From Leucoraja ocellata (Eukaryota), in contig JAWMAR010000201.1 in assembly GCA_036785375.1 (NCBI GenBank), positions 310,001 to 374,000 on the forward strand: a DNA stretch of 64,000 nt. Direction: 5' to 3'. A program made the translations under genes and the position numbers. Below are positions 477 through 63,848 of this stretch, piece after piece. The stretch's first letter is position 1, and every line of letters begins with the position of its first letter. The notes beneath the pieces were generated by a model. It saw nothing but the letters and a program-made list of their open reading frames with translations, was not told where the DNA came from and did not search any database.

Positions 477-695
477 CTATAAAGGGTGGGATTTTCCATG
501 GGCTCGTCCTCTACCCTTGATTGAGGCAAAGTGTGGGATCCCAGAATAATTCACTGTTTCATACTCTTGGATCATGCTCTCCCTGGGGTTTCTGTGCCCT
601 CCTCGTCTGGCTGGTCCAGGAACTGGCATCACAGGAGATTTCACTGTGTCATATATGGTGGCAGGAATCTCCAGCCTCTCCTTGTTCTGAGCCTG
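477..695 (-). CDS. SLAM/CD2-family receptor, last coding exon (cytoplasmic, ITSM)
   Basis: Polypyrimidine tract + CAGCAG acceptor. Phase-0 frame QAQNKERLEIPATIYDTVKSP...IQEYETVNYSG...HPL*, stop TAG at 479-477. TIYDTV fits the ITSM consensus TxYxxV/I. Confidence 0.85.
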   Translation of the reverse strand, partial: QAQNKERLEIPATIYDTVKSPVMPVPGPARRGGHRNPRESMIQEYETVNYSGIPHFASIKGRGRAHGKSHPL

Positions 696-1616: not shown

Positions 1617-1705
1617 CATCTCGTTCTCCTCCCGAGGCTGTCTGTTGGCTGGATGTCTCTGTGATGGCTGGGGTTGTGCATAGATAGTCTCCATGTTTGA
1701 TGGGC
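1617..1705 (-). CDS. SLAM/CD2-family receptor, cytoplasmic exon 1
   Basis: CTCTCCCCCACAG acceptor. Phase 1 frame (G)PSNMETIYAQPQPSQRHPANRQPREENEM; donor ATG|GTAAAG (phase 0), compatible with the last exon. Confidence 0.8.
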
Positions 1706-2155: not shown

Positions 2156-2293
2156 CTCCAGTGACTAGAGCGTTTTGACCTCCTCCTGTTCTCCTCCTTA
2201 CGATGAAGCAGACCAGAAAAATGATGCAAACAGCTACACAAGCTGCAACAACCGAAATAATAATAATAATTTGATTCCATGATCTCCTTCGTC
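2156..2293 (-). CDS. SLAM/CD2-family receptor, transmembrane exon
   Basis: TTGTTTTAG acceptor. Phase 1 frame (G)RRRSWNQIIIIISVVAACVAVCIIFLVCFIVRRRTGGGQNALVTG = hydrophobic helix plus RRR stop-transfer; donor GAG|GCAAGT. Confidence 0.85.
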
Positions 2294-6512: not shown

Positions 6513-7751
6513 ATTATTTTCCAACGATCAATAGATTTACGATCAGTTCCTGTGGATTGGAGGATAGCTAATGCTATCCCACTTTTCAAGAAAGGAGCGA
6601 GAGAGAAAACGGGGAATTACAGACCAGTTAGCCTGACTTTGGTGGTGTGAAAGATGCTGGAGTCAATTATTAAAGATGTAATAATGGGGCATTTGGATAG
6701 CAGTAAAAGGATTAGTCCAAGTCAACATGGATTTATGATTTTACAATGCATTTAAGCCTCTCCCATTTTTATGAGATGAATTCCTGGAATATGTAGGAAG
6801 TTTATTGTAACCTTCTCTAGGATCTTTGTTTGCAAGTAACGGCCGCTATCAGGGCGGGCGGGGTGCGGGAGGAGGAGGAGATGGAGCCGCTGTTCGGTGC
6901 CCGTCATTCGCTTCGACCCTTCGTCACCACGCACCTAGTATCTTTCTCACGCAATACAGCCGTCACCGCCGACACAAAACGTCTCGTTCCCTTTCTCCTG
7001 AGATGCTGCCTGACACGCTGAGTTACTCCAGTTTTTTGTGTCTATCTTCGGTACAAACCAGTATCTGGTTGCCAAGCCGGGCAAAATGACTCGGTGTTTG
7101 GTTGCCCAGCGGCGCTTTGAGTGGTCAATGGCACCCAGGCAACCGTTAATTTCGAGCCCTGTAGTGTGAATAGATTTTTCTAATAGAAGATATATATTTA
7201 AGGAGAGTAGTGAAAGGTTATAGAGGATCTGTGGAAGATTTGTTTCGCCTGGAGGGCAGACAAAATCTGAAACACACTCCCTAAGTAGGTGGTGGGGCAA
7301 ATATTCTCACAGTATTAAAGCCTCTGGGCAAGGGCATAAATTTCCAAGGCTAGAAAGCTATGATCAAGTACTGGTCCCATTGGGCCAACTATACAAACAT
7401 TTACAACCACGCACTACCAGCCCAGGACTCTAACTCAGGAGTCAAACTACTGAATGGTCCACCCATAAGCCAGGTATAATCCTGATCTTGCAATCTACCA
7501 CATTGCCAACATTTGACTTTTTCTTTGAAACTAACATTACAATGCTGCAAATATATATTCTGCATTCCGGTATTTTTCTTTTTGCTTGTGTATAGCTTGA
7601 TTGTAGTTATATATATGTTTAAGAAGGAACTGTAGATGATGGAAAATCAAATGTAGACAAAAATCCTGGAGAAACTCAGCGGGTGAGGCAACATCTATGG
7701 AGCGAAGGAAATAGGCAACATTTCGGGTCGAAACCCTTCTTCAGTCTGAAC

Positions 7752-10232
7752 ATGTTACCCACATTATTCTACATTTGTTAGATCATTGCCTGCTCACTTA
7801 ACTTGCCTTATTAGCCTTTAATAATTACCTTATGCTCACTTCATAACTTACTTTCCTACGTTTTGGGCCTTTTACACGAGTCATGTTAAAATTCATATAC
7901 TGGTGGAGGCTCCAGAACGAGCCCTTTGGCAATATTATATGTTGTTCATTTATGCCTACTCTGTTTCCTGTTATCCTGCCAGTCTTCTGTTCACTCCAAC
8001 ACAAATTCTGCTGCACTACAAGCTTTTATTTTCTTCAATAACGTTTGATGGAACATCTCCATGAAATGCCTTATGGAAATCTAATAACAGTGCACCTTCA
8101 TTGGTTTCTGTTCCTTCTTGTTTGTAACAAAGTGCCCTAAGACACATTTCTTCCCTCAGTGATTCTCTCTGGAGCTAACTTATTTCACATAGATTCAAAT
8201 TGCAATTTCACTTTTTGTATTTTGGACCCACCCAAGCTTGCAGGTCTGTTCAGCATGATGTTGAATAAAAGTTTGGAATCCTACAGTTCCAGCATGGATT
8301 TCTTTCTCTCTTCTGTAATTCATCTCCTATTTGCACCTTCTACAGCCAGGTTCTGTACAGAAAACAAGTATTCACCATCTCTCAGCCAGCATCACCATCG
8401 CCTCTGTTATGTGTGTGTCTCTCTGTCGCTATCATTGGCATTCTCTCAGTATTTCCGATTCCACCTCTCTGTCACATAAAATACATTTGATTTCTAATTT
8501 TTCCAATTTCTGACATAAAATCATCGACCTGGAATGTTGGTTATCTTTCTCTCATATCGTTGGCTGTTGAACCGTTGGAGCATTTCCAATATCTTCTGTT
8601 TTTATTGCATATTTCCAAAATCAGCAGTGTGTTTCACTCACCCGATGTGGCCTGTTTGCAGTCGTCCGTCAGCCAGATCTGGGCCGTGCCCTTACTGACC
8701 AGGTTCCTGGCCTCACACTTGTACTCAACGTCCCCGACCCCTGCTGTGTGATGAACCTCTATCGTCTCTCCGTGTCGCCAGGGGTGATGAGTGCTGCCGT
8801 TTCCCAGAGGTTCTTGTCCCTTCCACCACCTGAAGCTGGTGGGGTTGCCAGAGGTCACGGAGCAGGTCAGCTTGCAAATCCCGGTGATGTTCTGAATCTT
8901 AATCTGTGTTCCTGCCATGGGCTCTGAGGTTGCGGCAGAGAGAAGAAAGATGAATAAAGGAGATTCTTGTGGACCCCTCAATACCCAACACCCCGTCTCC
9001 AAGAGCCACGTGAACATTAAGCCACTCCCAGCTAATTTCCACCCACCAGTTTAACTCTTCCCTGCCCCCCCCCCCTTCAGTTCAGCGAGTTGTTGCTGTG
9101 AGAAGTCCACACGTGATGCGCCCTCTTCACATCCACCAACTCTCCACCATGTCCTGCTTATGGCTCTGTATCTTAAGTGATAGGAGTTGAATTAAACCAT
9201 TTGGCCCATCAAATCTACTCCACCATTCAATCATGGATGATTGAACCTGGGGATTCTCTCCAGGCGCAGGGTTTTTTTCACTTCCTCAAAAGGTCCCTGC
9301 GTCCCTTGTGCACCTGAGTGTGACCCAGCCCAGACCGGTCCTGAACCTGATCCAAGAGTGTCAGCCCTGTGACTGTGATGAGCACAGACCCAGACTGGGA
9401 TAGTGTGCCATGTTCCAGAGTGAATCCAGCACCATGCAGATCCTGGGTCACACACCGTCTCCCCCACAGAGACTGAAACAGCTCACAAATCGGGGGTGTA
9501 AATAGCAAGTTGTTCCCAGTCTTGTGATGGGACACATTCTGAGAGGGGAACCAAGTTGTCAGAATGGAGAAAATGTCAAAATGGACAGAGCAGAGATCTG
9601 GGGCTGCAGAGTCACCCTCACTGAAAGCAGATACATGGGCAGGGAAATCTCCTGATCACTGCCCCCCCCCCCCCCCCCCCCCCCCCATCCTCAGCAGATG
9701 AACTAGCTCTACCCCATGTTGGACCACACTTAGAATGCGTCCTGAGACCAGCAAAGGCCAGAACGTCCTCTAGGTGGGGATTTCAATGTCCAACATGGGA
9801 GTGGGTTGGTAGCACCTCCACAGACTGAGCCTCCAACTCCTGAGGGACAGCGGGCCATGGTGGGCTGCGACCAGGGATAATCTGGCCTGACCTGGCCATC
9901 CCCAGGCTACCAGTGGCAGGTGCATCTGTCCCTGACACCAATGATGAGACTTATCACTGTACAGTCCTTGTGGAGACAAGTCTGGTCTTCACACCAAAGG
10001 CTCATCCCCATCATATTGTGTGGCACCTACAATTGAGCTCAGTGGGAGAGGCTCAGAATAGATCATGCAGCTGACAACTGGGGTCTATGCGTTCCTGTGG
10101 ATAGCAGCAGAACTGTCCACCACGCAGACTGTAACCTCATGGTTCACGCCACCATTCCTGTCACCGAGGGGGGGTCAACCCTGGTTTACTGAGGAGCGCA
10201 GAGGACATGAAGCAGCACCAGGTGGAGATAAA
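7752..10232. repeat. Tandem segmental duplication unit B (contains C2 exon B)
   Basis: Colinear, high identity with 10607-14120 across intron and exon. Confidence 0.9.
8642..8923 (-). CDS. SLAM/CD2-family receptor, Ig C2 exon copy B
   Basis: 282 bp, CAG acceptor, G|GTGAGT donor, phase 1/1. (E)PMAGTQIKIQNITGICKLTC...FRWW...YKCEARNLVS...DDCKQATS has the four Cys typical of CD2/SLAM C2 domains. Confidence 0.88.
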
Positions 10233-11487
10233 CACGACAATGTTATATTCACAAATATGGCTTTATTTTCTCCCTATGTGAACAACACACGTAAATATTA
10301 TTTTATTTACTCCCTTGCTGGGTCAGCAGAGCTTGAGAGACATTATAAACACACATCAAGCAGGATTAAAGAGGGCCTTAAATTGTTCAGTTCCAGCTGC
10401 ATTCTTAAGTAAAAACCAAAAATGCTGAAAATAGTTAGAAGGTCAGGCCGCATCTGTGGCAAGAGAAACAGTTAATATTTTAGGTTGAAGACTCGTCTTC
10501 AGTCATAGTCTTTGACCTAACGTCTGTATGACGTTATGACTGCAATCACTTACTAGTTGGGTAATGTGCTTCTTTGTTATTCTTCCTGCAAATATTAAAC
10601 AATTTACCATGTTATTCTACATTTGTTAGATCCTTGCCCGCTCACTTATCTTGCCTTATTATCCTTTAATAATTACCTTATGTCCACTTCATATCTTACT
10701 TTCCTACATTTTGGGCCTTTTACACGAGCCATGTTAAAATTCATATACTAGTGGAGGCTCCAGAACGAGCCCTATGGCAATATTATATGTTGTTCATTTA
10801 TACCTACTCTGTTACCTGTTATCCTGCCAGCCTTCTGTTCATTCCAACACAAATCCTGCTGACCTACAAGCTTTTATTTTCTTCAATAACTTTTGATGGA
10901 ACATCTCCATCAAATGCTTTATGGAAATCTAATAACAGTGCACCTTCATTAGTTTCTGTTCCTTCTTATTTGTAACAAAGTGCCCTAAGACACATCTCTT
11001 CCCTCAGTGACTCTCTCTTTGGAGCTAACTTATTTCGTGTAGATTCTAATTGCTATTTCTCTTTTTGTATTTTGGACACACCTAAGCTTGCAGGTCTGTT
11101 CAGCGTGATGTTGATTAAAAGTTTGGAATCCTACAGTTCCAGCATGGATTGTTTTCTCTCTTCTGTAATTCATCTCGTAATTGCACCTTCTACAATCAGG
11201 TTCTGTACAGAAAACAAGTATTCACCATCTCTCAGCCAGCATCACCATCGCCTCTGTTATGTGTCTCTCTGTCGCGATCATTGGCATTCTCTCTGTATTT
11301 CCGATTCCACCTTTCTGTCACATAAAATACATTTGATTTCTAACTTTTCCAATTTCTGACATAAAATCATCGACCTGGAATGTTGGTTATCTTTCTCTCA
11401 TATCATTGGCTGTTGAACCATTGGAGTATTTCCAATATCTTCTGTTTTTATTGCATATTTCCAAAATCAGCAGTGTGTTTCACTCAC

Positions 11488-11769
11488 CCGATGTGGCCTG
11501 TTTGCAGTCGTCCGTCAGCCAGATCTGGGCCGTGCCCTCACTGACCAGGTTGCTGGCCTCACACTTGTACTCAACGTCCCCGACCCCTGCTGTGTGATGA
11601 ACCTCTATCGTCTCTCTGTGTCGCCGGGGGCGATGGATGGTGTCGTTTCCCAGAGGTTCTCCTCCCCTCCACCACCTGAAGATGGTGGGGTCGCCAGAGG
11701 TCACAGAGCAGGTCAGGTTGCAAATCCCGGTGATGTTCTGAACCTTAATCTGTGTTCCTGCCACGGGCT
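11488..11769 (-). CDS. SLAM/CD2-family receptor, Ig C2 exon copy A
   Basis: 282 bp, CAG acceptor, G|GTGAGT donor, phase 1/1. (E)PVAGTQIKVQNITGICNLTC...YKCEASNLVS...DDCKQATS. Confidence 0.9.
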
Positions 11770-12580
11770 CTGATGTTGCGGCAGAGAGAAGAAAGATGAG
11801 TAAAGGAGATCCTTGTGGGACCCTCAATACCCAACACCCCGTCTCCAACAGCCACAAGTGAACTTTAACGATCCCAGCTCATTTCCACCCACCAGTTTAA
11901 CTCTTCCCTCCTCTTCACTTCAGTTCAGCGAGTTGTTGCTTTACGAAGTCCACACGTGATGCGCCCCCTTCCCAACTACTGACCGCAATTATCCACCAAC
12001 TCTCCACCATCTCCTGTTTATGTAGTGTATCATAAGTGATAGGAGTAGAATTAAACCATTTGGCCCATCAAATCTACTCCGCCATTCAATCACGGATGAT
12101 TGAAGCTAGGGATACTATCCAGATGCAGGGTTTTTTTTTCACTTCTGCAAATGGTCCCTGTGTCCCTTATGCACCTGAGTGTGACCCAGCCCAGACCGGT
12201 CCTGAACCTGGTCCTAGAGTGTGAGCCCTGGGACTGTGATGGGCACAGACCCAGACTGGGATAGTGTGCCATGTTCCAGAGTGAATCCAGCATCATGCAG
12301 ATCCTGGGTCTCACACCGTCTCCCCCACAGAGACTGAAACAGCTCACAAATTGGGGGTGTAAATAGGAAGTTATTCCCAGTCTTGTGATGGGACACATTC
12401 TGAGAGGGGAACCTACGAGTCAGAATGGAGAAAATGTCAAAAGGGACAGAGCAGAGATCTGGGGCTGCAGAGTCACCCTCACTGAAAACAGATACATGGG
12501 CAGAGAAATCACTGTACAGTCCTTGTGGAGACAAGTCTGGTCTTCACACCGAACGCTCATCCCCATCATAATGTGTAGTA

Positions 12581-13923
12581 CAGGTGCACAACCTTTTATC
12601 CGAAATTCCAAATAATGAAAAGCTCCGAATAGCGGACATTTTTTCGGTCCTTGAAGAAAGGTCCTTGAAGACGTTCACCGAGGGCGGCCCGCAGAGGTGA
12701 CAGCGGAACCTCCGGTCGGTCCTCGAAGAAAGGGGAACTTAATCCCAATTCATAAAAGAGAAGGTGAGGGTATATTAAGCGGGAGGGTTAATAATTGACA
12801 ATCTGCTGCTGCCTGCCCGCTGAGTTAAAAAGTTCCCACAGTAGACTCACGATACACAGTGTATCGTGAGTCTTGCGTGGGAACTTTTTAACTCAGCGGG
12901 CAGGCAGCAGCAGAATGTCGCTCCCTTCAGTTTCACCCCACATACACCCCTCTGCTTCCCGGCCATGTGTGTGACCCCTTCCCTCCCCTCTCCAGCTCCC
13001 CGCCCATTGCACCGACGCGGGGGCTTTGCACTGTCTTCACGTCGGCGATGCCAGCAGGTCAGTGCCAGTCACCGGAGACGTCAGGACCAACGGGACACCG
13101 ACCCCCAGGCCCACTGCAAGCACGGAGATCCCAGAGACCCACAGCCAGCAGCAGCCCAGCCCCGTTCCAACTCCAGAAGAAAATTGCAAACTGGCCGGAG
13201 ACGTCAGGACCACCAGAAGCCGCTCCCCGATGGGCCGCTATGGCGACAAGTGGCAGTTCATCCACAGCCCGAGCAGCGCCCCCTCATCGGGACACCGAAC
13301 CCCAGGCCCACTGCAATCACGGAGATCCCAGATCAGCAACTCCAGCCCAGCCCCGCTCCAACTCCAGAGGAACACGCTCCCCGTAGGGGCAGAAGCTGAT
13401 GGTGTGCAAGGTACATCTTGTTCGTGGGGTGGCGTAACTCGGGCTGTGGGCGAACTGCCACTTGTCGCCGTAGCGGCCCATCGGGGAGCGGATTCCTCTG
13501 GAGTTGGAGGGGGAGGGGGTATTGTGCTGTTTGCTCGTCCCCTGCTATTCCAGGGACAGGGAGACACAGCGGCTTTTGAGAATGGTGGGCAATCACTTCC
13601 AACGTTCTGCCCACACAGTCAGTACACCTCTCCTACACTTGTCTCCTGCACTAAGATCATCTCGCAGAGAATGATCCCAGCCTAACCCTCCCTATTCTCT
13701 CCTATTCTGCAAGAAAAAACTACATTGAAGACTCAAACTCGTGATCGAGTAACTGCCGGGATCGAGGCGCAAACTCGCAACCTTGCGGATATGAGCCGAG
13801 CACTCTACCACTGAGCCAGCCGTTAAAATCTACACTAAAAATCTTTCATTCCGAAAGCCGAAAAATTCCGAATTACGAAAAGTCTCTGGTCCCAAGGCTT
13901 TCGGATAAAAGGTTGTGCAGCTG
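12581..13923. mobile_element. Non-autonomous Tc1/mariner-superfamily (Tigger/pogo-like) DNA transposon
   Basis: 25-bp TIR CAGGTGCACAACCTTTTATCCGAAA / TTTCGGATAAAAGGTTGTGCAGCTG; TA TSD at 12579-80 and 13924-25; empty site in the paralogous unit near 10024. Confidence 0.92.
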
Positions 13924-15729
13924 TACCTACAATTGTGCTCAGTGGGAGAGACTCAGAAGAGATCATGCAGCTGACAACTGGGGTCCATGCGGTCCTGTGG
14001 ACAGCAGCAGTCTGTAACCTCATGGTTCACATCACCATTCCTGTCACCGAGGGGGTCAACCCTGGTTCACTGAGGAGCGCAGAGGACATGAGGAAGCAGC
14101 ACCAGGTGGAGATACACATAACGAGGTGCCAGCCTGGTGAAGCTGCGACAGAGGACAACATGGGAGCTCATCAGCAACAACAGCCGCAAAAAAAGAGCTG
14201 AGGGACCTCGCAGCCTTTGGCTCGGTCAAAGCTCTACAGTCCTACTTACTACATCTGAACATGAATAGTGGTGGACAATTCAACAGCTCATCGAATGCAG
14301 CAGCCAAAATAGCATCCCCACCCTCAGCGATAATGTGACCCAGCATGTGAGTACTGGAGACAAGGCTGATCATTTACAACCTCGATCAGTCAGAGTGCTG
14401 AAGTGGATAATCTCTGTTCTTCTGAGATCCTACCGTCACAGAAACCAGTTACCAGACAATTTAGTTGACTGAATGCAAGATCATGTTTATAAGTTATAGG
14501 AGCAGAATTAGGCCATTTGGCCCATCATGTCTAGGTCGCCATCTAAATCACAGTTGATCTATCTTTCCCTCAAACTCATTCTCCTGCCTTCTCCCCATAA
14601 CCTCTGACACCTGTACTAAAGAATATATCACTCTCCGCCTTAAAAATATCCATTGACTTGGCCTCCAAAGCCTCCTGTGACAGATTCATCACCTTCTGAC
14701 AAAATTAATTCCTCTTCATCTCCTATCTAAAGGTACTATATGTCCTTTTATTCCGAGGCTATGGCCTCGGGTCCTGGACTCAATCATTAATGGAAACATC
14801 TTCTTCACATCCAGTGTATCCAGGTAACAGCAGAGGGCCGCTATACATACCCAGCTCCAGGCAACATCCCAGCTATAGTACGTAGTGAAGACATGTACTC
14901 CTGAAGTCGGGGCACGTCTGGCCAAGTTGTTTTTGCAACATTGGCATCCAGTGACAATGAAAAATTGCCCTCATGTCTGCTGTTCAAAAACAGGATGAAT
15001 CCAATCAGCTGATCACCTTCCAATTGATCTACTCTAGATCAGCAGCAAAGTAAGAGAGGAGCTATTGGTGACACTTTTCTCATGCAATAACCTGCTCACT
15101 GAAGTTGAAGATCTTATCTGAAGATCTCATCACGGCTTTGGTCCAAGACTGCAACGAAGAGCTGAGTTGCAGAGGCTGACTGTCCTCAACATCAACGCAT
15201 TGTTTGACTGAGTGACATTAGGGAGCCCTTATAAAACTAAAGTCAATGAACATCCAGAGGTTAACACTCTGACATGTAGCCACACCTCACACGGAGGAAG
15301 ATGGTTGTGGTCATTGGAGGTCAGTCAACCCAGCCACAGGTCATCACTGCAGGTGTTCCACAGGGCAGTGTCCTGGGCCCAACCAGCTGCTTCATCAATT
15401 ACCTGCCTGGCATTGCAACATTTGATTGATGATGGCACAATGTTCAGTTCCATTATCAACTCAACTGCATGCAGCAGGACCCAGAGAACATTCAGGCAGG
15501 GGCTGATAAGTGGGAAGTTTGCAACCACGTAATGGAAGTGTCAGCAGGAGACAGCCCAGTGCTTGAGACTCAATGATTCTCCCAGCAGCAAGTCCCACAT
15601 CATCAAAACAACGGAACAGCAACTCAACAATACTAATCACACATACTCTGTGGCTATTGGAGAAAGTTTGAGGATGGGTATCCCGTAGGAGTGAATCACT
15701 TCCTGACACCCTGACCTTTCCCCGTCTAC

Positions 15730-16177: not shown

Positions 16178-16896
16178 TAAAGGAACGTGACCTTTCCTCA
16201 TTTACAGGACATGTCAGGAGTGTAAGGGAACACTCTTCAAATATCTGGGTGAGTGCAGCTCCAACATCTCTCGAGAAATTTTCATCACCTGCAACTGAAG
16301 CAGCTGCTTAGTCAGATCCCTACCCACTTCCCAAAATACTCCCACCCTCCATCAGCCTAAGTACTTCCTCCCCCATCCTAATATCATCCTTCTGCCACTC
16401 TAAACACTCCCACCACCACCCCAAGCATTCCCTCTGTCCAATCCCTAAACATTCCATCCCTCTATGGAATGGGATAAAGAAGGGTCTCGACCCAAAACAT
16501 TGCCTATTTCCTTTGCTCCATAGATGCTGCCCCACCCGCTGAGTTTCTCCAGCATTTTTGTCATCCCTCTATCAATGTGGGTGGTGTGTATGTAATCCAG
16601 AAAATTCACCCGGGAGCCTGGAACAAATTCCTTCCTCATGGAGCAGTGGGAACGTGGGAACCGTTGACGGTTCGATGCTTCACGGCCCCTGGCCCAATGA
16701 CCGGGGATGTGGTGCGCCTGTCCCCCAGCCTAGCACTGCCCCAGTCCCACTACACTGGGACCGTGACGCCCACTCTACATACTGGCATTCAGTGGGGTTC
16801 AGTAAACTGGGGAACGCACAGGATCTGCCCTCGCCCATTAATTAGAGCGGTTCAGGAGCCGGTGAAAGCCGGAACATCCGCGGCAGTCTCACTCAC

Positions 16897-17760: not shown

Positions 17761-18078
17761 CGTACACCTCCAGTCGGACTCCCGCTGAAGTTGTAACTCC
17801 TGAACTTGTAATAACAACCACCTGGTAATCACCAGCATCATCTCTCCGTAGACCACGGATTTCCAGACTGAAGTTCCCGCGGTGAAGAGTTACCCGTCCA
17901 TTGTAATTGGTGGTATAGTATTTAATATTCTCAGCCGAGTACTTGGCTATCTTGGTGCTGGCTGATGTCCGGCTCCACTCAACGCTGCCAACATCCGGTG
18001 TGACTGTGATCCCAGCAGGTAAGGAGACCGAGTGTCCCCGAGCTCCAGTCACGGTGCCAGCGGCGGCCCCAGTCCCAG
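17761..18078 (-). CDS. SLAM/CD2-family receptor, Ig V-set exon
   Basis: 318 bp, CTCCTCAG acceptor, TACG|GTGAGT donor, phase 1/1. Motifs GHSVSLP, VEW, YNGRVTL..NFSLEI..LRRDDAGDY, LEVY; no B/F-strand Cys, as in CD2/SLAM N-terminal domains. Confidence 0.92.
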
Positions 18079-21239: not shown

Positions 21240-21306
21240 CTACACAGAAGGCGATGAGGGATGCACAGAGCAGGGAGGGGATCCTCCTCAAAGAAAAGTG
21301 CCACAT
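21240..21306 (-). CDS. SLAM/CD2-family receptor, signal-peptide exon
   Basis: ATG at 21306; MWHFSLRRIPSLLCASLIAFCV; perfect G|GTAAGT phase-1 donor joining in frame to the V exon (..FCV-A-GTGAAAG). Confidence 0.85.
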
Positions 21307-23730: not shown

Positions 23731-24258
23731 TGACCCTGTGCTAGATGAATCAGGTCCCTAACCAGGTGGATGTTATCCTGAATGGACCGGCCAGGGACTG
23801 CATAGGACTGGTCAGGGTGAATCAGTTGAGACAACACAGAGCCCAGGCAATTTGCCATCGCCCGTGCAAAAACTTTGTACTCTGTACAGAGGAGAGAGAC
23901 TGGACGCCAGTTCTTCAACATGCGGAGTTCGCCCTTCTTGGGCAGCAAGACCACGACTGCCCTACGCCACGAGAGGGGCATCTCCCATCGCCAGGCTCTC
24001 CCCCAGAACCTTCATGTAATCACCCCCCAGGATATCCCAGAAGGCTCTAACAAATTCTACCATCCAGCCCAGGGGACTTGCCCCTCCTGAGCTGGTGCAG
24101 GGCACGTCAACTTCTCCAATGATAATGGGTCATCAAGAAGTTCGGACACCTCCCTATCTACTGTCGGTAGAAGCTCCCACAGGCCCTGCTGAGCCTCCCC
24201 GCTGAATTCATCTGCGGAGAACAGGGACCCATAAAAGGACCAGACTAAAGCACTGTTC

Positions 24259-26331
24259 GGGACCTGGAGGTGTTCACAGACAGTGTACTGTGTTACATTA
24301 AAAACTGCATGGACACGGTCACAGTGGACAAACGCATCCGGGTCTATCCCAACCAGAAGCCCTGGATGACCCGGGAGGTCCAGCGGCTGTTGAAAGAGAG
24401 GAACACCACTTTTAGGTCTGGCGATAGGGCTTTATACAGCACGGCCCAAGCTAACCTGAAGAGAGGCATCAGAGAGGCCAAATCAAACTACAGGAGGAAG
24501 ATAGAGGACCACCTAGACAGTAACAACAGCAGGCAAGTGTGGCAGGGGATCCAGTATATCACCAACTATAAGACCAACCTTGGAGCTGTTGAAGGTGACG
24601 CCTCGTTGGCAGAGGAGCTGAGCCACTTCTTTGCTCGCTTTGAAGTGGAGCCACCCGAGACAGCCACATCACAGCACAGGGTTCACAGCAGCCCAACCCT
24701 CAAGATAGAGGAGCATGAGGTGAGGCGCACGCTGCGGGCCATCAATCCAAGGAAGGCTACTGGACCTGACGTCGTCTCTGGACACGTGTTGAAGGACTGC
24801 GCAGACCAGCTGGCTGGAGTCTGTACGAGGATTTTTAACCAGTCTCTGGCACAGTCCACTGTTCCACCCTGTCTGAAGTCCTCCACCATAGTCCCCTTGC
24901 CCAAAAAAAACAACATCTCCAGCCTCAACAACTACTGGCCAGTCGCACTCACACCAGTGGTGATGAAGTGTTTTGAAAAACTGGTCCGGGGTCATATCAC
25001 ATCACTCCTGCCCTGAAGCTTTGACCCCCACCAGTTTGCGTACAGAGCAAATAGATCTACAGAGGACGCTGTAGCCACAGCTCTCCATGCTGCACTGTCC
25101 CACCTGGAGCAGCGGGGGAGCTATGTGCGGATGCTCTTTGTGGACTACAGCTCTGCTTTTAATACCATCCTTCCCCACAAACTGATGGACAAACTGGGGG
25201 ACTTGGGACTTCCACACTCCACCTGCATGTGGATAAATAGCTTCCTGTCGGGTCGCAGCCAGAGAGTCAGAGTGGGCCATCACACATCCACGGCCCTCAG
25301 CCTCAGTACCGGCTCTCCACAGGGCTGCGTACTGAGCCCCCTGCTCTACACCATCTACACACATGACTGCACCCCCGCCCACCACAGCAACACCATTGTC
25401 AAATTTGCGGATGACACTACGGTGGTGGGACTCATCTCCGGGGGGGGACGAGTACGCCTACCGGGATGAGGCGGAGCAGCTGACAGTGTGGTGTGAAGAA
25501 AATAACCTGCTCCTGAACACCTTAAAGACAAAGGAAATAATAATAGACTTTAGGAAGAATAAAACGGACATGGTACCATTGATTATCAGAGGGGACTGTG
25601 TAGAGAGGGTGGCGGATTTCCGCTTCCTGGGAATCCATATTGAGGAGGACCTGACATGGAGCATGAACACCACTGCGCTGCTGAAAAAGATCCAGCAGAG
25701 ACTGCACTTCCTGAGGGTGCTCAGGAAGAATAACATCACTCAGAGACTGCTGCTGTCCTTTTATCGGTGCTCCATTGAGAGCATCCTAACATACTGTGTA
25801 TGCGTATGGTACACCAGCTGCACAGCGGCTCAGAGGAAAGCGCTCCAGAGGGCCATTGACAATGCCCAGAGGATTGTCGGCTGCCCTCTCCTTACCTTGG
25901 AGGACTTACACAGTTCCCGCTGCATCAAAAAATCCCAGAGTATTATAAAGGACATTTCCCACCCCGGACACTCCCTGTTTGAACTGTTGCCGTCAGGCAG
26001 ACGGTACAGGTCTACAAGGACAAACAGACTTAAAAACAGTTTTTACCCCACTGCTATAAAGGCACTAAATGTAGCCGCCAAGGAACGCAGGGGCGATACA
26101 TACTAAGGGACTGTGGTACACTGTGAAATCGACAGAAGGATGTAGGGTTGGGTGTTTATGCGTGCTATTTTCATGATATTTATTTTAGTTGTTTATCTTT
26201 TAATATTTTACCTTGTATGTATCGTTAGCTTTTAGAAATGTTTGAATGGTGCACTGACTGGCTGACATTTTTAAATTTTGTTGTACATGGTTCATGTTAC
26301 AATGACAATAAATAAACTATTCTATTCTATT
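24259..26331 (+). mobile_element. 5'-truncated Rex1/Babar LINE nested in Tx1
   Basis: RT motifs NQKPW, KATGPD, PVALTPVVMKCFE, LFVDYSSAFNTI, GSPQGCVLSPLL, KFADD, LPSGRRYRS; (CTATT)n tail; TSD CTGTTC at 24253-58 and 26332-37. Confidence 0.93.
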
Positions 26332-50911: not shown

Positions 50912-51958
50912 CAAAGATCCTATAGCAGAGCAAGATAGGCTACTCCTGCTAAATGCAATGGACTGACGTGTAGTACGCTATGGAGGGGATCATGAGCATT
51001 TTTCCACGCCCATTTTAGCAACCTGAGCCTACCTGACCCGACCCGACTCGCACTGTAATCAATGTTGCGGGGCAACAGTTTGTGTCGGTTAGATTCATAA
51101 ATCTGTCAGTTCAAACTTCTTGTCAATAATAAAATTTGATTCTGGTAATTGTCTTTTTTTATGTTTTTTAAATCATTTCTTTTTAAATGGCTCACAAGCA
51201 GTGTTTGAGGTGATTTTGTAGTAACCGGAACCGACCCGACTCGCAGGTGATTGACAGGGGGGGACATTTTGAGCGTGATTAGAGGGTTAGATTCATAATT
51301 CTGTTAGTTCATAATTCTGTTGATTCTTGTTAAAGAATAAAATGTTTATAAACACACATACATGAAAATTATATAAATGTATATAACACACACAATTATA
51401 TTTCTTCTAATCCAATAATGAACTTTATTTCAGACTAGACAAGTGACATTAAATATGAAACATTGTAAACCTCCCTGCAACTGCACACACACTAGGCCTT
51501 ATCCTCCCCGGCACTCTCTCGCCTGCCCCCTTACTACAATGTCCCTCTCCTCGCCGCCCCGGGCCCCGCACTCCTTCTCCCCGCTGCCCCGGGCCCCGCA
51601 CTCTCTCTCCCCGCTGCCCCGGGCCCCGCACTCCTTCTCCCCGCTGCCCCGGGCCCCGCACTCTCTCTCCCCGCTGCCCCGGGCCCCGCACTCCTTCTCC
51701 CCGCTGCCCCGGGCCCCGCACTCTCTCTCCCCGCTGCCCCGGGCCCCGCACTCCTTCTCCTCGCTGCGGATCCAATCTTTGGCCGGAAGCAAGAAGGCGG
51801 GAGCAAGAAAGCAGAGCAAGATGGCGGAACAAGATGGCGGAACAAGATGGCGGAGGCAGGTTGCTAAAATGAGGCATAAAATCACCCATGAATCCGCCCA
51901 TGAGCGTACCGCACGTTTGCGTGAGAGTAACCTATCTTGCTCTGCTATAGGATCTTTG
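50912..51958. mobile_element. Non-autonomous DNA transposon with 8-bp TSD (hAT or P superfamily)
   Basis: Perfect 28-bp TIR CAAAGATCCTATAGCAGAGCAAGATAGG; TSD CCCTAGAG at 50904-11 and 51959-66; inserted in an old CR1. Confidence 0.92.
51545..51766. repeat. 30-bp GC-rich minisatellite, ~7 units alternating two variants
   Basis: CCCCGCTGCCCCGGGCCCCGCACTCCTTCT alternating with ...GCACTCTCTCT. Confidence 0.95.
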
Positions 51959-59242: not shown

Positions 59243-62200
59243 TAGAAACATAGAAAATAGGTGCAGGGTGAGGCCATTCAGCCCTTCGAGCCTGCACTGC
59301 CATTCAATATGATCATGGCTGATCATCCAACTCAGTATCCTGTACCTGCCTTCTCTCCATACCACCTGCCACATCTAACTCCCTCTTAAATATAGCCAAT
59401 GAACTGGCCTTAACTACCTTCTGCGGCAGAGAATTCCAGAGATTCACCACTCTCTGTGTGAAAAATTTTTTCCTCATCTCGGTCCTAAAAGATTTCCCCC
59501 TTATCCTTAAACTGTGACCCCTTGTTCTGGACTTCCCCAACATCGGGAACAATCTTCCTGCATCTAGCCTGTCCAACCCCTTAAGAATAAGAATTTTGTA
59601 AGTTTCTATAAGATCCCCCCTCAATCTTCTAAATTCTAGCGAGTACAAACCGAGTCTATCCAGTCTTTCTTCATATGAAAGTCGTGACATCCCAGGAATC
59701 AGTCTGGTGAACCTTCTCTATACTCCCTCTATGGCAAGAATGTCTTTCCTCAGATTAGGAGACCAAAACTGTACGCGAGCATCCTTACCAACTGTATCAC
59801 AGTACGGTATGGCAACTGCTCTATCTCCGACCGGAAGGCTTTGCAGAGGGTGGTGAAAATTGCCCAACGCATCACCGGTTCCTCGCTCCCCTCCATTGAG
59901 TCTGTCCAAAGCAAGCGTTGGGCGCTCAGCATCGCCAAGGACTGCTCTCACCCCAACCATGGACTGTTTACCCTCCTACCATCCGGGAGGCGCTACAGGT
60001 CTCTCTGTTGCCGGACCAGCAGGTCCAGGAACAGCTTCTTCCCGGCGGCTGTCACTCTACTTAACAACGTACCTCGGTGACTGCCAATCACCCCCCCCTC
60101 CCCCCCCCCGGACACTCCTCCCACAGGAAAAACACTATGTCTGTATATATGCTAATGTAAATATTTATTCAAATCATATGCTATGTCGCTCTTCCAGGGA
60201 GATGCTAAATGCATTTTGTTATCTCTGCACTGTACAGTGACAATGACAATTAAAGTTGAATCTGAATCTGAATCTGAATACTCCAGGTGTGGTCTCTCCA
60301 AGACCCTGTACAACTGCAGTAGAACCTCCCTGCTCCTATACTCAAATCCTTTTGCTATGAATGCTAACATACCATTCGCCTTCTTCACTGCCTGCTGCAC
60401 CTGCATGCCTACTTTTAATGACTGGTGTACCATGATACCCAGGTCTCGTTGCATCTCCCCCTTTCCTAATCGGCCACCATTCAGATAAAAGTCTACTTTC
60501 CAGTTTTTGCCACCAAAGTGGATAACCTCACATTTATCCACATTATACTGCATCTGCCTTGCATTTGCCCACTCACCCAACCTATCCAAGTCACCTTGCA
60601 GCCTCCTAGCATCTTCCACACAGCTAACACTGCCCCCCAGCTTCGTGTCATCCGCAAACTTGGAGATGTTGCATTCAATTCCCTCGTCCAAATCATTAAT
60701 ATATATCGTAAATAGCTGGGGTCCCAGCACTGAGCCTTGCAGTACCCCACTAGTCACTGCCTGCCATTGTGAAAAGGACCCGTTTACTCCTACTCTTTGC
60801 TTCCTGTCTGCCAGCCAGTTCTCTATCCACATCAATACTGAACCCCCAATACCGTGTGCTTTAAGTTTGTATACTAATCTCTTATGTGGGACCTTGTCGA
60901 AAGCCTTCTGAAAGTTCAGATATAACACATCCACTGGTTTTCCCTTATCCACTCTACTAGTTACATCCTCGAAAAATTCTATAAGATTCGTCAGACATGA
61001 TTTACCTTTCATAAATCCATGCTGACTTTGTCCAATGATTTCACCACTTTCCAAATGTGCTGCTATCCCATCTTTAATAACTGATTCTAGCAGTTTCCTC
61101 ACTACCGACGTTAGACTAACTGATCTGTAATTCCCCGCTTTCTCTCTCCCTCCCTTTTTAAAAAGTGGGGTTACATTAGCTACCCTCCAATCCTCAGGAG
61201 CTACTCCAGAATCTAAAGAGTTTTGAAAAATTATCAATAATGCATCCACTATTTCTGGGGCTACTTCCTTAAGTACTCTGGGATGCAGCCTATCTGGCCC
61301 TGGGGATTTATTGGCCTTTAATCCATTCAATTTACCTAATACCACTTCCCGGCTAACCTGGATTTCACTCAGTTCCTCCATCTCATTTGACCCCCGGTCC
61401 CCTGCTATTTCCGGCAGATTATTTATGTCTTCCTTAGTGAAGACAGAACCAAAGTAGTTATTCAATTGGTCTGCCATGTCCTTGTTCCCCATGATCAATT
61501 CACCTGTTTCTGACTGCAAGGGTCCTATATTTGTTTTAACTAATCTTTTTCTCTTCACATATCTATAAAAGCTTTTGCAGTTAGTTTTTATGTTCCCTGA
61601 CAGTTTTCTTTCATAATCTATTTTCCCTTTCCTAATTAAGCCCTTTGTCCTCCTCTGCTGGACTCTGAATTTCTCCCAGTCCTCTGGTAGGCTGCTTTTT
61701 CTGGCTAATTTGTATGCTTCATCTTTTGTTTTGATACTATCCCTGATTTCCCTTGTTATCCACTGATGCACTACCTTCCCTGATATATTCTTTTGCTAAG
61801 CTGGAATGAACAATTGTTGTAGTTCATCCATGCAGCCTTTAAATGCCTTCCATTGCATATCCGCCGTCAACCCATTAAGAATCAATTGCCAGTCTATCTT
61901 GGCCAATTCACGTCTCATACCCTCATAGTTACCTTTCTTTAAGTTCAGGACCCTTGTTTCTGAAGTAACAATGTCATACTCCATCCTAATGAAGAACTCA
62001 ACCATATTATGATCACTCTTGCCCAAGGGGCCACGCATAACAAGACTGCTAACTAACCCTTCCTCATTACTCAATACCCAATCTAGAATAGCCTGCTCTC
62101 TCGTTGGTTCCTCTACATGTTGGCTTAGAAAACCATCCCGCATACATTCCAAGAAATCCTCTTCCTCAGCACCCTTGCCAATTTGATTCACCCAATCTAT

Positions 62201-62266
62201 ATGTAGATTGAAGTCACCCATTATAACTGTTTTACCTTTGTTGCACGCATTTCTAATTTCCTGTTT
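59243..62266 (-). mobile_element. Young CR1 LINE ORF2 (APE-RT) interrupted by a Rex1 fragment
   Basis: ORFs 61796..62431 (MGDFN, SDHN) and 60152..61771 (full RT motifs); 3' part 59243-59776. Confidence 0.95.
59777..60277 (+). mobile_element. Rex1/Babar 3' fragment nested in CR1
   Basis: LQRVVKIAQRITG...LLPSGRRYRS...NSFFP; (TCTGAA)n tail; splits CR1 between LEY and VQFWSP. Confidence 0.9.
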
Positions 62267-62355
62267 GAGACCTAGGGGCGGAGGCAAATAGTTCCTTGAA
62301 AGTAGCAAAACAGCTGGGCAGGGTGGAAAAGGAGGTGTTTGACACATTTTGCTCT

Positions 62356-62995
62356 CATAGAAACATAGAAAATGGGTGCAGGAGGAGGCCATTGGGCCCT
62401 TCGAGCCAGCCCAGCCATTCATTGTGATCATGGCTGATCATTCCCAATCAATAACCCGTGCCTGCCTTCTCCCCATATCCCTTGACTCCACTAGCCCCTA
62501 GAACTCTATCTAACTCTTAAATCCATCCAGTGACTTGGCCTCCACTGCCCTGTGTGGCAGGGAATTCCATGAATTCACAACTCTCTGGGTGAAAAAGTTT
62601 TTTCTCACATTAGTCGTAAATTGCCACACCTTTATTCTAAGACTGTGGCCCCTGGTTCTGGACTCGTCCCACATTGGGAACATTTTTCCTGCATCTAGCT
62701 TGTCCAGTCCTTTTATAATTTTATATGTTTCTATAAGATCCCCCCTCTTCCTTCTAAACTCCAGTGAACACAAGCCTAGTTTTTTCAATCATTCCTCGTA
62801 TGACAGTCCCGCCATCCCAGGGATCAATCTCGTGAACCTACACTGCACCGCCTCAATCACAAGGATGTCCTTCCCCAAGTTAGGAGACCAAAACTGTACA
62901 CAGTACTCCAGATGTGGTCTCACCGGAGCCCTATACAACTGCAGAAGAACCTCTTTACTCCTATACTGAAATCCTCTTGTTATGAAGGCCAATAT
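62356..62995 (-). mobile_element. 5'-truncated CR1
   Basis: LAFITRGFQYRSKEV...; (TTTCTATG) tail. Confidence 0.9.
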
Positions 62996-63848
62996 TTCAT
63001 CAGTCAGGATATTGAGTGCAGGGCATATTACAGCTGTACAAGATGTTGATAATGCCACTTGTGGAGTAGTGCAACTATTCTGATCTCAATGCTCTTAGAT
63101 GATATCATTAAACAGGAAAAGATGCAAAAAACCTTACGAGGATGTTACCTGGATTGGTGGGTTAGATTTAAAGAGTCATAGTCATACAATACGGAAACAG
63201 GCCCATTGGCCCAACTTGACCATGCCCCATGCACGCAGTCCTACCTTCCCACATTTGGCTCACATCCCTCTCAACCTTTCCTATCCAGTCAAAAAAGGAG
63301 AGGCTGGATAGGCTACAACATTTTACGCTGGAGCATAAGAGGTTGAGGGGTGAGCTTATAGATGCTAATGAAATTCTGACAGACACAGATATAGTGAATA
63401 ACAATATTATTTTCCTAGAATAGGGGAATATAAATCTAAAGGGAATATATTTAAAATGAGAGGAGAGATTTAAAAAGGACCTTGTAGACACCTTTTTCAC
63501 ACTGTGGGTGGTCTGTATATGAAACAAGCTGCCAATAGAGGCAGATATAATTACGACATTTAAATGACACTTGGACAGGTGTATGAATAAGAAAGATTTT
63601 GAGGGATGTAGACAAAACGCAGGCAAATTGTACTAGCTCACTTCGGCAACTTGCTCAGCCTAGACTTGTTGAGACAAATGGCCTATTTCAGTGCTGTTAG
63701 TTTGATGACGCCATAGAGGACCAAACGCATGGATGATTTTATAGTTCAACGTGTTCAGGAATCAATAATGGAGAGGGCAATTTTAGACCCAGTATTGTGT
63801 AAAATGGAAGAGTTAACTGATAATCCAGTATTTATTAGTCAAGTCTGA

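Follow-up and report, generated by a model that had tools for sequence, protein, structure and literature searches.

Tandem duplication of a C2 exon in a SLAM/CD2-family receptor gene of the skate Leucoraja ocellata

Introduction

Receptors of the SLAM/CD2 family such as CD84/SLAMF5, NTB-A/SLAMF6, 2B4 and CD2 combine a V domain free of cysteines with a C2 domain carrying four, a transmembrane (TM) segment and an ITSM of the form TxYxxV, and their genes are clustered; all these features recur in the skate gene described here. The membrane-distal IgV-like domain of the family is without the canonical disulfide. Binding to themselves or to other members of the family, and recruitment of SAP/EAT-2, are further traits of these receptors. 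Mammalian members are built as V-C2 or, in the case of Ly9, as V-C2-V-C2, whereas the skate gene has two consecutive C2 exons, with which the genome allows V-C2-C2 or V-C2.

The relatives used for comparison are predicted batoid proteins of the SLAMF5-like or Ly9-like kind. Two of them, Amblyraja XP_032898512.1 and Rhinoraja XP_078277103.1, have a leader, TM segment and tail of the same type as the skate gene and, judging from these sequence features, are its likely orthologues; their models contain one C2 domain, while the skate gene contains two. Rhinoraja XP_078277110.1 is predicted to be V-C2-C2 with the same TM type, and Hypanus XP_059828667.1 is predicted to have three C2 domains. The two skate copies, A and B, group together and apart from domains doubled in other species, so the duplication would be separate or the copies homogenised.

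Comparable variation is described in the available parts of two reports on KIR genes, likewise clustered Ig receptors, in which domain number is altered by exon silencing (pseudoexon 3) or skipping (exons 4/5) (PMC6288254, PMC3504360). KIR belongs to a different family and is backed by RNA evidence, while the skate gene is known from genomic sequence. Mutually exclusive exons of the Dscam1 type are likewise homologous tandem exons, each coding for Ig sequence; the skate copies differ from them in being young and in that we found no exclusion mechanism. In the human catalogue, as far as its available part goes, mutually exclusive tandem exons are rare and mostly ancient (PMC8373072).

The size of CD2-family molecules matters in T-cell contacts: according to the available part of a study in a mouse system, CD48 lengthened by two or three Ig domains is strongly inhibitory, and a one-domain extension is not among the constructs it describes there (PMC2195552). 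If a cartilaginous fish naturally has a receptor longer by one domain, beside short paralogues, it would test whether this size rule is ancient. At the level of listings, we found no account in the open-access literature that SLAM-like genes of batoids vary in domain number; RefSeq already includes the multi-domain batoid proteins, as automatic predictions.

Gene anatomy and family assignment

The window, that is, the whole stretch of 64,000 nucleotides that was analysed, contains on its minus strand a SLAM/CD2-family gene with the exon order leader, V, C2, C2, TM and tail with one ITSM. The leader exon (21240..21306, 67 bp, ATG at 21306, GT donor) is of the same type in the Amblyraja model P0004 and the Rhinoraja model P0007. 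It is followed by a V-set Ig exon of 318 bp without cysteines (17761..18078), which matches the Pfam V-set (2e-13) and Receptor_2B4 (4e-6) profiles above the cut-off and whose best six matches among PDB sequences are CD2 (four), an unnamed 99-residue chain and CD84/SLAMF5. The C2 exon adjoining V (B, 11488..11769) and the one adjoining TM (A, 8642..8923) are both 282 bp long and encode four cysteines, with three N-glycosylation sequons in B and two in A. The TM exon (2156..2293, 138 bp) has a non-canonical GC donor and one match in the assembly. The first cytoplasmic exon (1617..1705) carries TIYAQP, a second TxY motif that is not canonical, and the last exon (477..692) carries TIYDTV, which fits the ITSM TxYxxV/I, an ITIM-like VNYSGI and the stop codon. 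Between V and TM, profile searches outside the masked stretches of the A-TM intron revealed no further V- or C2-type exon.

Conserved cysteines are described for the C2-like domain of the family (PMC12506779). In the skate gene, C17, C21, C70 and C89 are present in both C2 exons; across 24 sequences C21 and C70 are invariant, and C17 and C89 nearly so. An Ig fold is predicted for exon B with a mean pLDDT of 76; residues 36-51 lie in a long loop of low confidence. The fold search ranks five Dscam entries first and CD2 and NTB-A sixth and seventh, so that the model indicates an Ig fold only and does not single out CD2 among Ig domains. The gene has an IgV-like domain, a four-cysteine C2, an ITSM and a place in a gene cluster, and the family, anatomy and coding capacity assigned in the first-pass annotation are borne out.

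Structure and reality of the duplication

The same annotation had described a unit of about 2.5 kb, containing only the C2 exon, as tandemly duplicated, with both 282-bp exons open, and self-alignment agrees: positions 7749-9649 align with 10598-12510 at 91.7% over 1924 columns, and the alignment continues in 9953-10021/12508-12576 and 10025-10234/13925-14118. The upstream copy (B, 10598..14118, minus strand) contains an insertion resembling a DNA transposon (12580..13924), with 28-nt terminal inverted repeats and TA on both sides, which we take to be of the Tc1/mariner type, and it lacks 306 bp (9647-9952) of the downstream copy (A, 7749..10234, minus strand). Allowing for the transposon (1.34 kb) and this gap, the unit measures about 2.49 kb; the exon-to-exon period is 2846 bp. 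The copies are separated by a 363-bp filler (10235..10597), to which nothing else within 660 kb is homologous and whose first 166 bases have one match in the assembly. Both C2 exons are stop-free, phase 1/1 and bounded by AG and GT, with acceptors ending in CATCAG and CCTCAG and identical GTGAGT donors. The orders V-B-A, V-B and V-A, proposed earlier as possible products, and also V only, are all open to the natural stop.

That two alleles or paralogues were joined in tandem during assembly is suggested by the repeat-rich cluster with its near-identical blocks, by the fact that none of the run contigs spans both C2 exons, and by the circumstance that one run may be the source of the assembly. 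Against this, the copies are 6.4% apart, and the junction of unit, filler and unit is bridged by DNA contigs in three of the five contig runs examined, X1 (10143-10893), X3 (10143-10641) and X6 (10181-10628), which come from three studies under three organism labels; it is unbridged in X8 and X12. In each of the three runs the sequence departs from the window in a few small ways of its own, and X6 represents a relative about 1.5% diverged at the junction that has kept it. Depth at the junction resembles that of neighbouring pieces (X1, 44.1 vs 40.5-50.9; X3, 47.4 vs 42.6-50.3; X6, 76.9 vs 69.6-76.9). The haplotype mis-join that the first-pass annotation had named first among its refutations is unlikely, as contigs from these three independent studies cross the junction, and the depth there also speaks against it; an assembly artefact is already largely refuted and, in our judgement, hardly credible.

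In X1, the bin 8348-8734, covering the 3' third of exon A, has an unexplained depth of 3 against about 45 elsewhere.

Relatives and the genomic cluster

Over its first 660 kb, the contig contains 14 V and 25 C-type loci (three of them weak); the C2 exon has 19 DNA matches, every one of them on the same contig. Among 49 predicted relatives, 24 are V-C2 and 17 have three Ig domains. The view that such receptors are normally V-C2 fits mammals and these 24 relatives, but three-Ig forms are frequent among the batoid predictions. V-C2-C2 is predicted in Rhinoraja P0002, with the same TM type, and in Amblyraja P0001, and V-C2-C2-C2 in Hypanus P0050; being predicted genes, these multi-domain relatives may be fusions of neighbours. 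The cluster has further duplicates of C2 alone: four copies at 606-624 kb of the contig, which have lost the canonical cysteines, and one of 2.4 kb at 410-412 kb for which no V was found; from their sequence, they look dead or orphaned.

Taken as a single locus, the duplication most likely arose through ordinary turnover of exons in an immune cluster that evolves fast. A wider reading holds that splicing and intronic poly(A) give a length-tunable SLAM receptor (V-C2-C2, two V-C2 and secreted forms), and that skates and rays generally reshuffle exons (V-V-V, V-V-C2, V-C2-V, V-C2-C2, V-C2-C2-C2) to vary SLAM/CD2 reach, unlike mammals; we consider it doubtful.

Divergence and descent of the two copies

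Copies A and B have diverged by 6.4%, in the exon as much as in the intron (18/282 vs 102/1594; Fisher p=1.0), so purifying selection is not visible, and 15 of the 94 residues are changed. Of the exon changes, 16 are nonsynonymous and two synonymous (Fisher p=0.26, binomial p=0.12; about 0.05 for the excess of amino-acid changes in a codon-based simulation), and ordinary paralogue pairs show similar proportions, e.g. 11/2 and 26/4; positive selection on A versus B was rejected because the excess is insignificant. The changes tend to fall in variable columns (p=0.08), and 10 of the 15 changed residues lie in codons 27-52 (p=0.015 for a window picked post hoc).

In the C2 tree, from which a frameshifted paralogue, one divergent C2 and the weak and partial C2 loci are omitted, A and B form a sister pair (99/90) with equal branch lengths of 0.091 and 0.096, and the polarised changes number 8 and 10, so neither copy seems singled out for decay. 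A neighbouring paralogue as the source of one copy was discarded, as in the C2 exon A and B group together. The unit of the nearest paralogue is 91.9% identical to B and 88.7% to A, and in the downstream intron 20 of 24 A/B differences are private to A, which makes conversion or an uneven history possible. We also looked for short fragments of homology and found none.

One copy could be a neutral, skipped pseudoexon caught before decay, leaving a V-C2 protein. The exon diverging at the intron rate is consistent with this, as are a probability of about 0.29 that one neutrally drifting copy would stay intact, the state of the other C2-only duplicates, the single C2 of the closest orthologue models (P0004 and P0007) and, in the available part of the report, the precedent of KIR pseudoexon 3 (PMC3504360). 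We nevertheless regard it as improbable, since divergence is symmetric, splice sites and structural core are kept in both copies (all four cysteines and the WW core), the junction persists in the relative X6, and C2-to-C2 joins occur in X12. Departures from 35 near-invariant columns number two and three in the two copies; seven rows with a single C2 have 0-2 of them, and the dead copies of the array 7-8.

Splicing of the two exons

A real, inherited tandem duplication whose two C2 exons would by default be spliced together, yielding a V-C2-C2 protein one Ig domain longer than the predicted single-C2 orthologues, is the reading that we hold to be somewhat probable. A local duplication within a cluster where exons are repeatedly gained and lost would have produced the tandem, exons B and A would be jointly included in the mRNA, the extra C2 would act as a spacer lifting the ligand-binding V domain, and the signal would pass through the ITSM. 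In-frame skipping of one copy might happen now and then, as a side product and not a dedicated switch.

The RNA-like run X12 contains three different C2-to-C2 joins in the SLAM/CD2-type family; none is letter-identical to the ends of A or B, one differing by one base, and a single-exon circle would produce the same type of join. X12 also contains a join from C2 to a TM of the type found in this gene, the joins to TM amounting to one loose end only, and its TM is a 3-nt indel apart from that of the window. These family-level joins point to co-inclusion. In the RNA runs X22, X23 and X24 (1-5% of each), the two C2-exon bins have at most about 0.7-fold depth, and none of the 15 joints listed (444 more exist) is a splice joint; with almost no C2-exon reads, these runs say nothing on splicing. 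X8, a possible RNA run, has thin cover over introns and is uninformative on this point.

Exclusion of one exon by the other has structural causes such as a very short intron, a frame clash, mixed splice-site classes or competing pairing. We found none of these, the inverted pairs among the 25 listed of 36 being repeat-derived only. The B-A intron has 2564 bp, both exons are multiples of three, and the splice sites of A and B are GT-AG, so that with identical donors nothing was found that forces an either/or use. The available part of the tandem-exon survey states that most such exons become constitutive (PMC8373072).

The first-pass annotation had proposed instead that alternative splicing gives substantial V-B-A, V-B and V-A and so tunes the length and surface of the ectodomain, which we judge unlikely. 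Every exon combination is in frame; the 10 clustered changes surround the low-confidence loop; at -5 the B acceptor carries an A that is derived, and in copy A a putative branch-point base has changed; both exons (86 nt, 91%), or B alone (43 nt, 74%), lie between the arms of inverted pairs; and skipping of Ig-domain exons is documented in the available part of a KIR report (PMC6288254). On the other side, the inverted pairs, among 25 listed of 36, are repeat-derived only, with arms in high-copy repeats, the donors, intron length and frame symmetry offer no basis for exclusion, the amino-acid changes are matched by ordinary paralogue pairs, and no junction of this gene appears in X22-X24, where C2-exon reads are near zero.

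The gene may also end after B or A, giving secreted V-C2 or V-C2-C2 decoys besides the membrane form, which we consider very improbable. AATAAA, a putative intronic poly(A) signal, lies on the minus strand 36 nt into the post-B intron (11447..11452), behind an in-frame stop at the donor, and in the same context 36 nt into the post-A intron (8601..8606). The hexamer is missing at this place in 9 of the 12 exons listed of 16 and is of single origin, which weighs against a secreted form; in its favour, both donors read through to G-E-stop, the hexamer is also present in the nearest paralogue, and the Amblyraja model P0003 terminates at the same read-through.

Organization of the gene

We lean towards reading this minus-strand gene as a V-C2-C2 receptor carrying an extra spacer domain. 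With B denoting the C2 exon that adjoins V and A the one that adjoins the transmembrane (TM) exon, the full frame, composed of the leader exon (21240-21306), V exon (17761-18078), B (11488-11769), A (8642-8923), TM exon (2156-2293) and two tail exons, is open over 463 residues, and it is kept when A, B or both are omitted. The anatomy proposed in the first-pass annotation is borne out, and the duplication is real. The Pfam profiles V-set and Receptor_2B4 both hit the V exon, whose top PDB matches include CD2 and CD84 and which contains no cysteine. Each C2 has four cysteines; the tail bears one ITSM (TIYDTV) and one ITIM-like motif. Four sequence or genomic features of SLAM-family membership are present, and the family features described in PMC12506779 agree with the V, C2 and tail of the skate gene. 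The nearest named proteins are from skates, with 83-86% identity. The predicted model of exon B, with a mean pLDDT of 76, shows an Ig fold of six strands; in a fold search it placed CD2 at rank 6 and NTB-A at rank 7, with Dscam domains ahead. The TM exon has a GC donor (position 2156); the Rhinoraja V-C2-C2 model runs past the same site and then stops.

The duplicated unit and its junction

Self-alignment of the window reveals a direct duplication of 7749-9649 against 10598-12510 (91.7% over 1924 columns), which carries on at 9953-10021/12508-12576 and then at 10025-10234/13925-14118. The upstream copy lacks 306 bp and has acquired an element of 1.34 kb bounded by terminal inverted repeats of 28 nt; once both are corrected for, the unit measures ~2.49 kb, in line with the ~2.5-kb tandem unit originally described. 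Each copy holds one 282-bp exon, and the earlier description of both exons as open, phase 1/1 and intact at their splice sites was confirmed; their acceptors end in AG, and both donors read GTGAGT. Both exons lie between two inverted copies of a short, high-copy repeat (7656-7741 and 16477-16562; 86 nt, 91%).

A 363-bp filler lies between the copies, and its initial 166 bases have a single match in the assembly. The first-pass annotation had named a haplotype mis-join as an outcome that would overturn the tandem. The passage from unit end through filler to next unit is bridged by contigs of X1 (10143-10893; depth 44.1, with one differing letter and one gap), X3 (10143-10641; depth 47.4, with one differing letter and 16 gap letters) and X6 (10181-10628; depth 76.9, with seven differing letters and 12 gap letters). 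These make up three of the five contig runs and represent three studies and three organism labels; one run may be the source of the assembly itself. Junction depths are similar to those of adjacent pieces, contig depth not being equivalent to copy number. Depths of 15.9 and 24.1 occur in two further X1 pieces, and one X1 bin across the 3' third of exon A has a depth of 3. X8 and X12 are sparse over introns and leave the junction unbridged, and no contig among the five runs covers both exons. A mis-join of the copies is unlikely, and we regard an assembly artefact as extremely improbable. In X6, some pieces over 9300-12000 are 243-377 deep against 70-77 for the junction contig, roughly fourfold, and may represent extra unit copies or paralogues in the X6 organism.

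Divergence of the two C2 exons

Exon and flanking introns differ equally between A and B, by 6.4% each (18/282 and 102/1594), and 15 of the 94 residues are changed. Codon paths give 16 non-synonymous and 2 synonymous changes, an excess that is not significant and a pattern resembling several ordinary paralogue pairs of the cluster. A protein tree of 50 rows pairs the two exons as sisters (99/90) on branches of equal length, and polarization by the nearest paralogue divides their changes 8 versus 10. Among 35 near-invariant columns the two copies are off-consensus at 2 and 3; the corresponding figure is 0-2 for seven rows with a single C2 and 7-8 for three dead copies. The probability of staying intact by chance is ~0.09 if both copies drift and ~0.29 if one does. 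Taken together, these results fit two working exons, short of proof. That one copy is instead a pseudoexon we consider unlikely; in KIR genes, both exon skipping and a silent pseudoexon are documented, and by analogy either outcome might occur in the skate gene.

Splicing

In the three raw RNA runs, the C2 exons are nearly devoid of reads. X12 is RNA-like, with depth concentrated on the exon, and one of its contigs fuses a C2 end to a TM of the studied gene's type, 3 nt apart from the TM in the window. It contains three distinct C2-to-C2 joins (depths 27.9, 22.1 and 14), which single-exon circles would mimic; their upstream ends read QAPP, QATL and QATF, only the inserted letters deriving from X12. 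Since none of the three has an exact A or B end and the TM differs, X12 probably derives from a relative or from an allele that has diverged. X12 suggests that tandem C2 exons of the SLAM family are spliced together; it does not suggest that the studied gene switches. Our search for a cause of mutual exclusion found none: the intron between the exons measures 2564 bp, both exons are frame-symmetric, their donors are identical, and the inverted pairs, among the 25 of 36 listed, are all repeat-derived. Most tandem exons end constitutive, according to PMC8373072, and regulated alternative use of A and B seems to us fairly unlikely. Secreted forms as the main outcome are very improbable. A stop codon and an AATAAA lie right inside the intron downstream of each C2 copy.

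Regarding the favored V-C2-C2 receptor, the ectodomain-size argument comes from the experiments of PMC2195552, in which the extension was by two or three domains and not by a single one. No paper dealing with domain variation among the SLAM genes of cartilaginous fishes came up in a catalogue-level literature search.

Cluster and relatives

Over 660 kb of the contig, the host cluster comprises 14 V loci and 25 C-type loci (3 weak), and duplication of C2 alone has happened there repeatedly. Four tandem C2 exons at contig positions 606517-624208, with ~5.8-kb spacing and 96-98% alike, have the canonical B-strand Cys replaced by Ser; three of them show a GTCAGA donor, the fourth is frameshifted, and no V exon was found closer than ~66 kb upstream. 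A 2.4-kb C2-bearing duplicate (92%) occupies 380695-383060 and 410033-412380, 29 kb apart; no V exon was detected for the latter copy. Counting isoforms, the automatic gene models of 49 predicted relatives include 24 V-C2 and 17 three-Ig layouts (8 V-V-V, 4 V-V-C2, 3 V-C2-V, 2 V-C2-C2); 22 more proteins, chosen from 150 matches and likewise automatic models, add one V-C2-C2-C2 and two V-C2-V-C2, and the likely orthologue models in Amblyraja and Rhinoraja have one C2 each.

At the nearest paralogue (contig 271793-287154), the V DNA is 97% identical, the C2 exon is one base short and thus frameshifted, and a TM of the studied gene's type is absent. Just downstream, a divergent C2 exon of 541-542 kb recurs as an inverted 1.2-kb copy (96%) that is oriented like the gene and may have arisen by exon shuffling. 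V and C2 exons of 6986-49744 recur nearly identically, partly inverted, at 168900-244656 (the V translations at 6986 and 244336, for instance, are identical), reflecting either a large recent segmental duplication or an uncollapsed haplotype. Three open frames that resemble one another (89014-89487, 108187-108951 and 133974-134450) are Ig-like but divergent, score weakly as C2 and probably belong to another Ig family. From ~base 140 onwards, the V exon's 3' half has 71-81% matches on many other contigs (G000:C43:1527030-1527210 and ~20 other places), either dispersed V-exon relatives or fragments beyond the cluster.

No further V or C2 exons were found in the window between 21.4 and 64 kb. At 24249-26103, 60155-63085 and similar places there are long open frames, together with segments of 1-2 kb that recur, all resembling LINE fragments, and an array of 30-bp tandem repeats spans 51542-51767.
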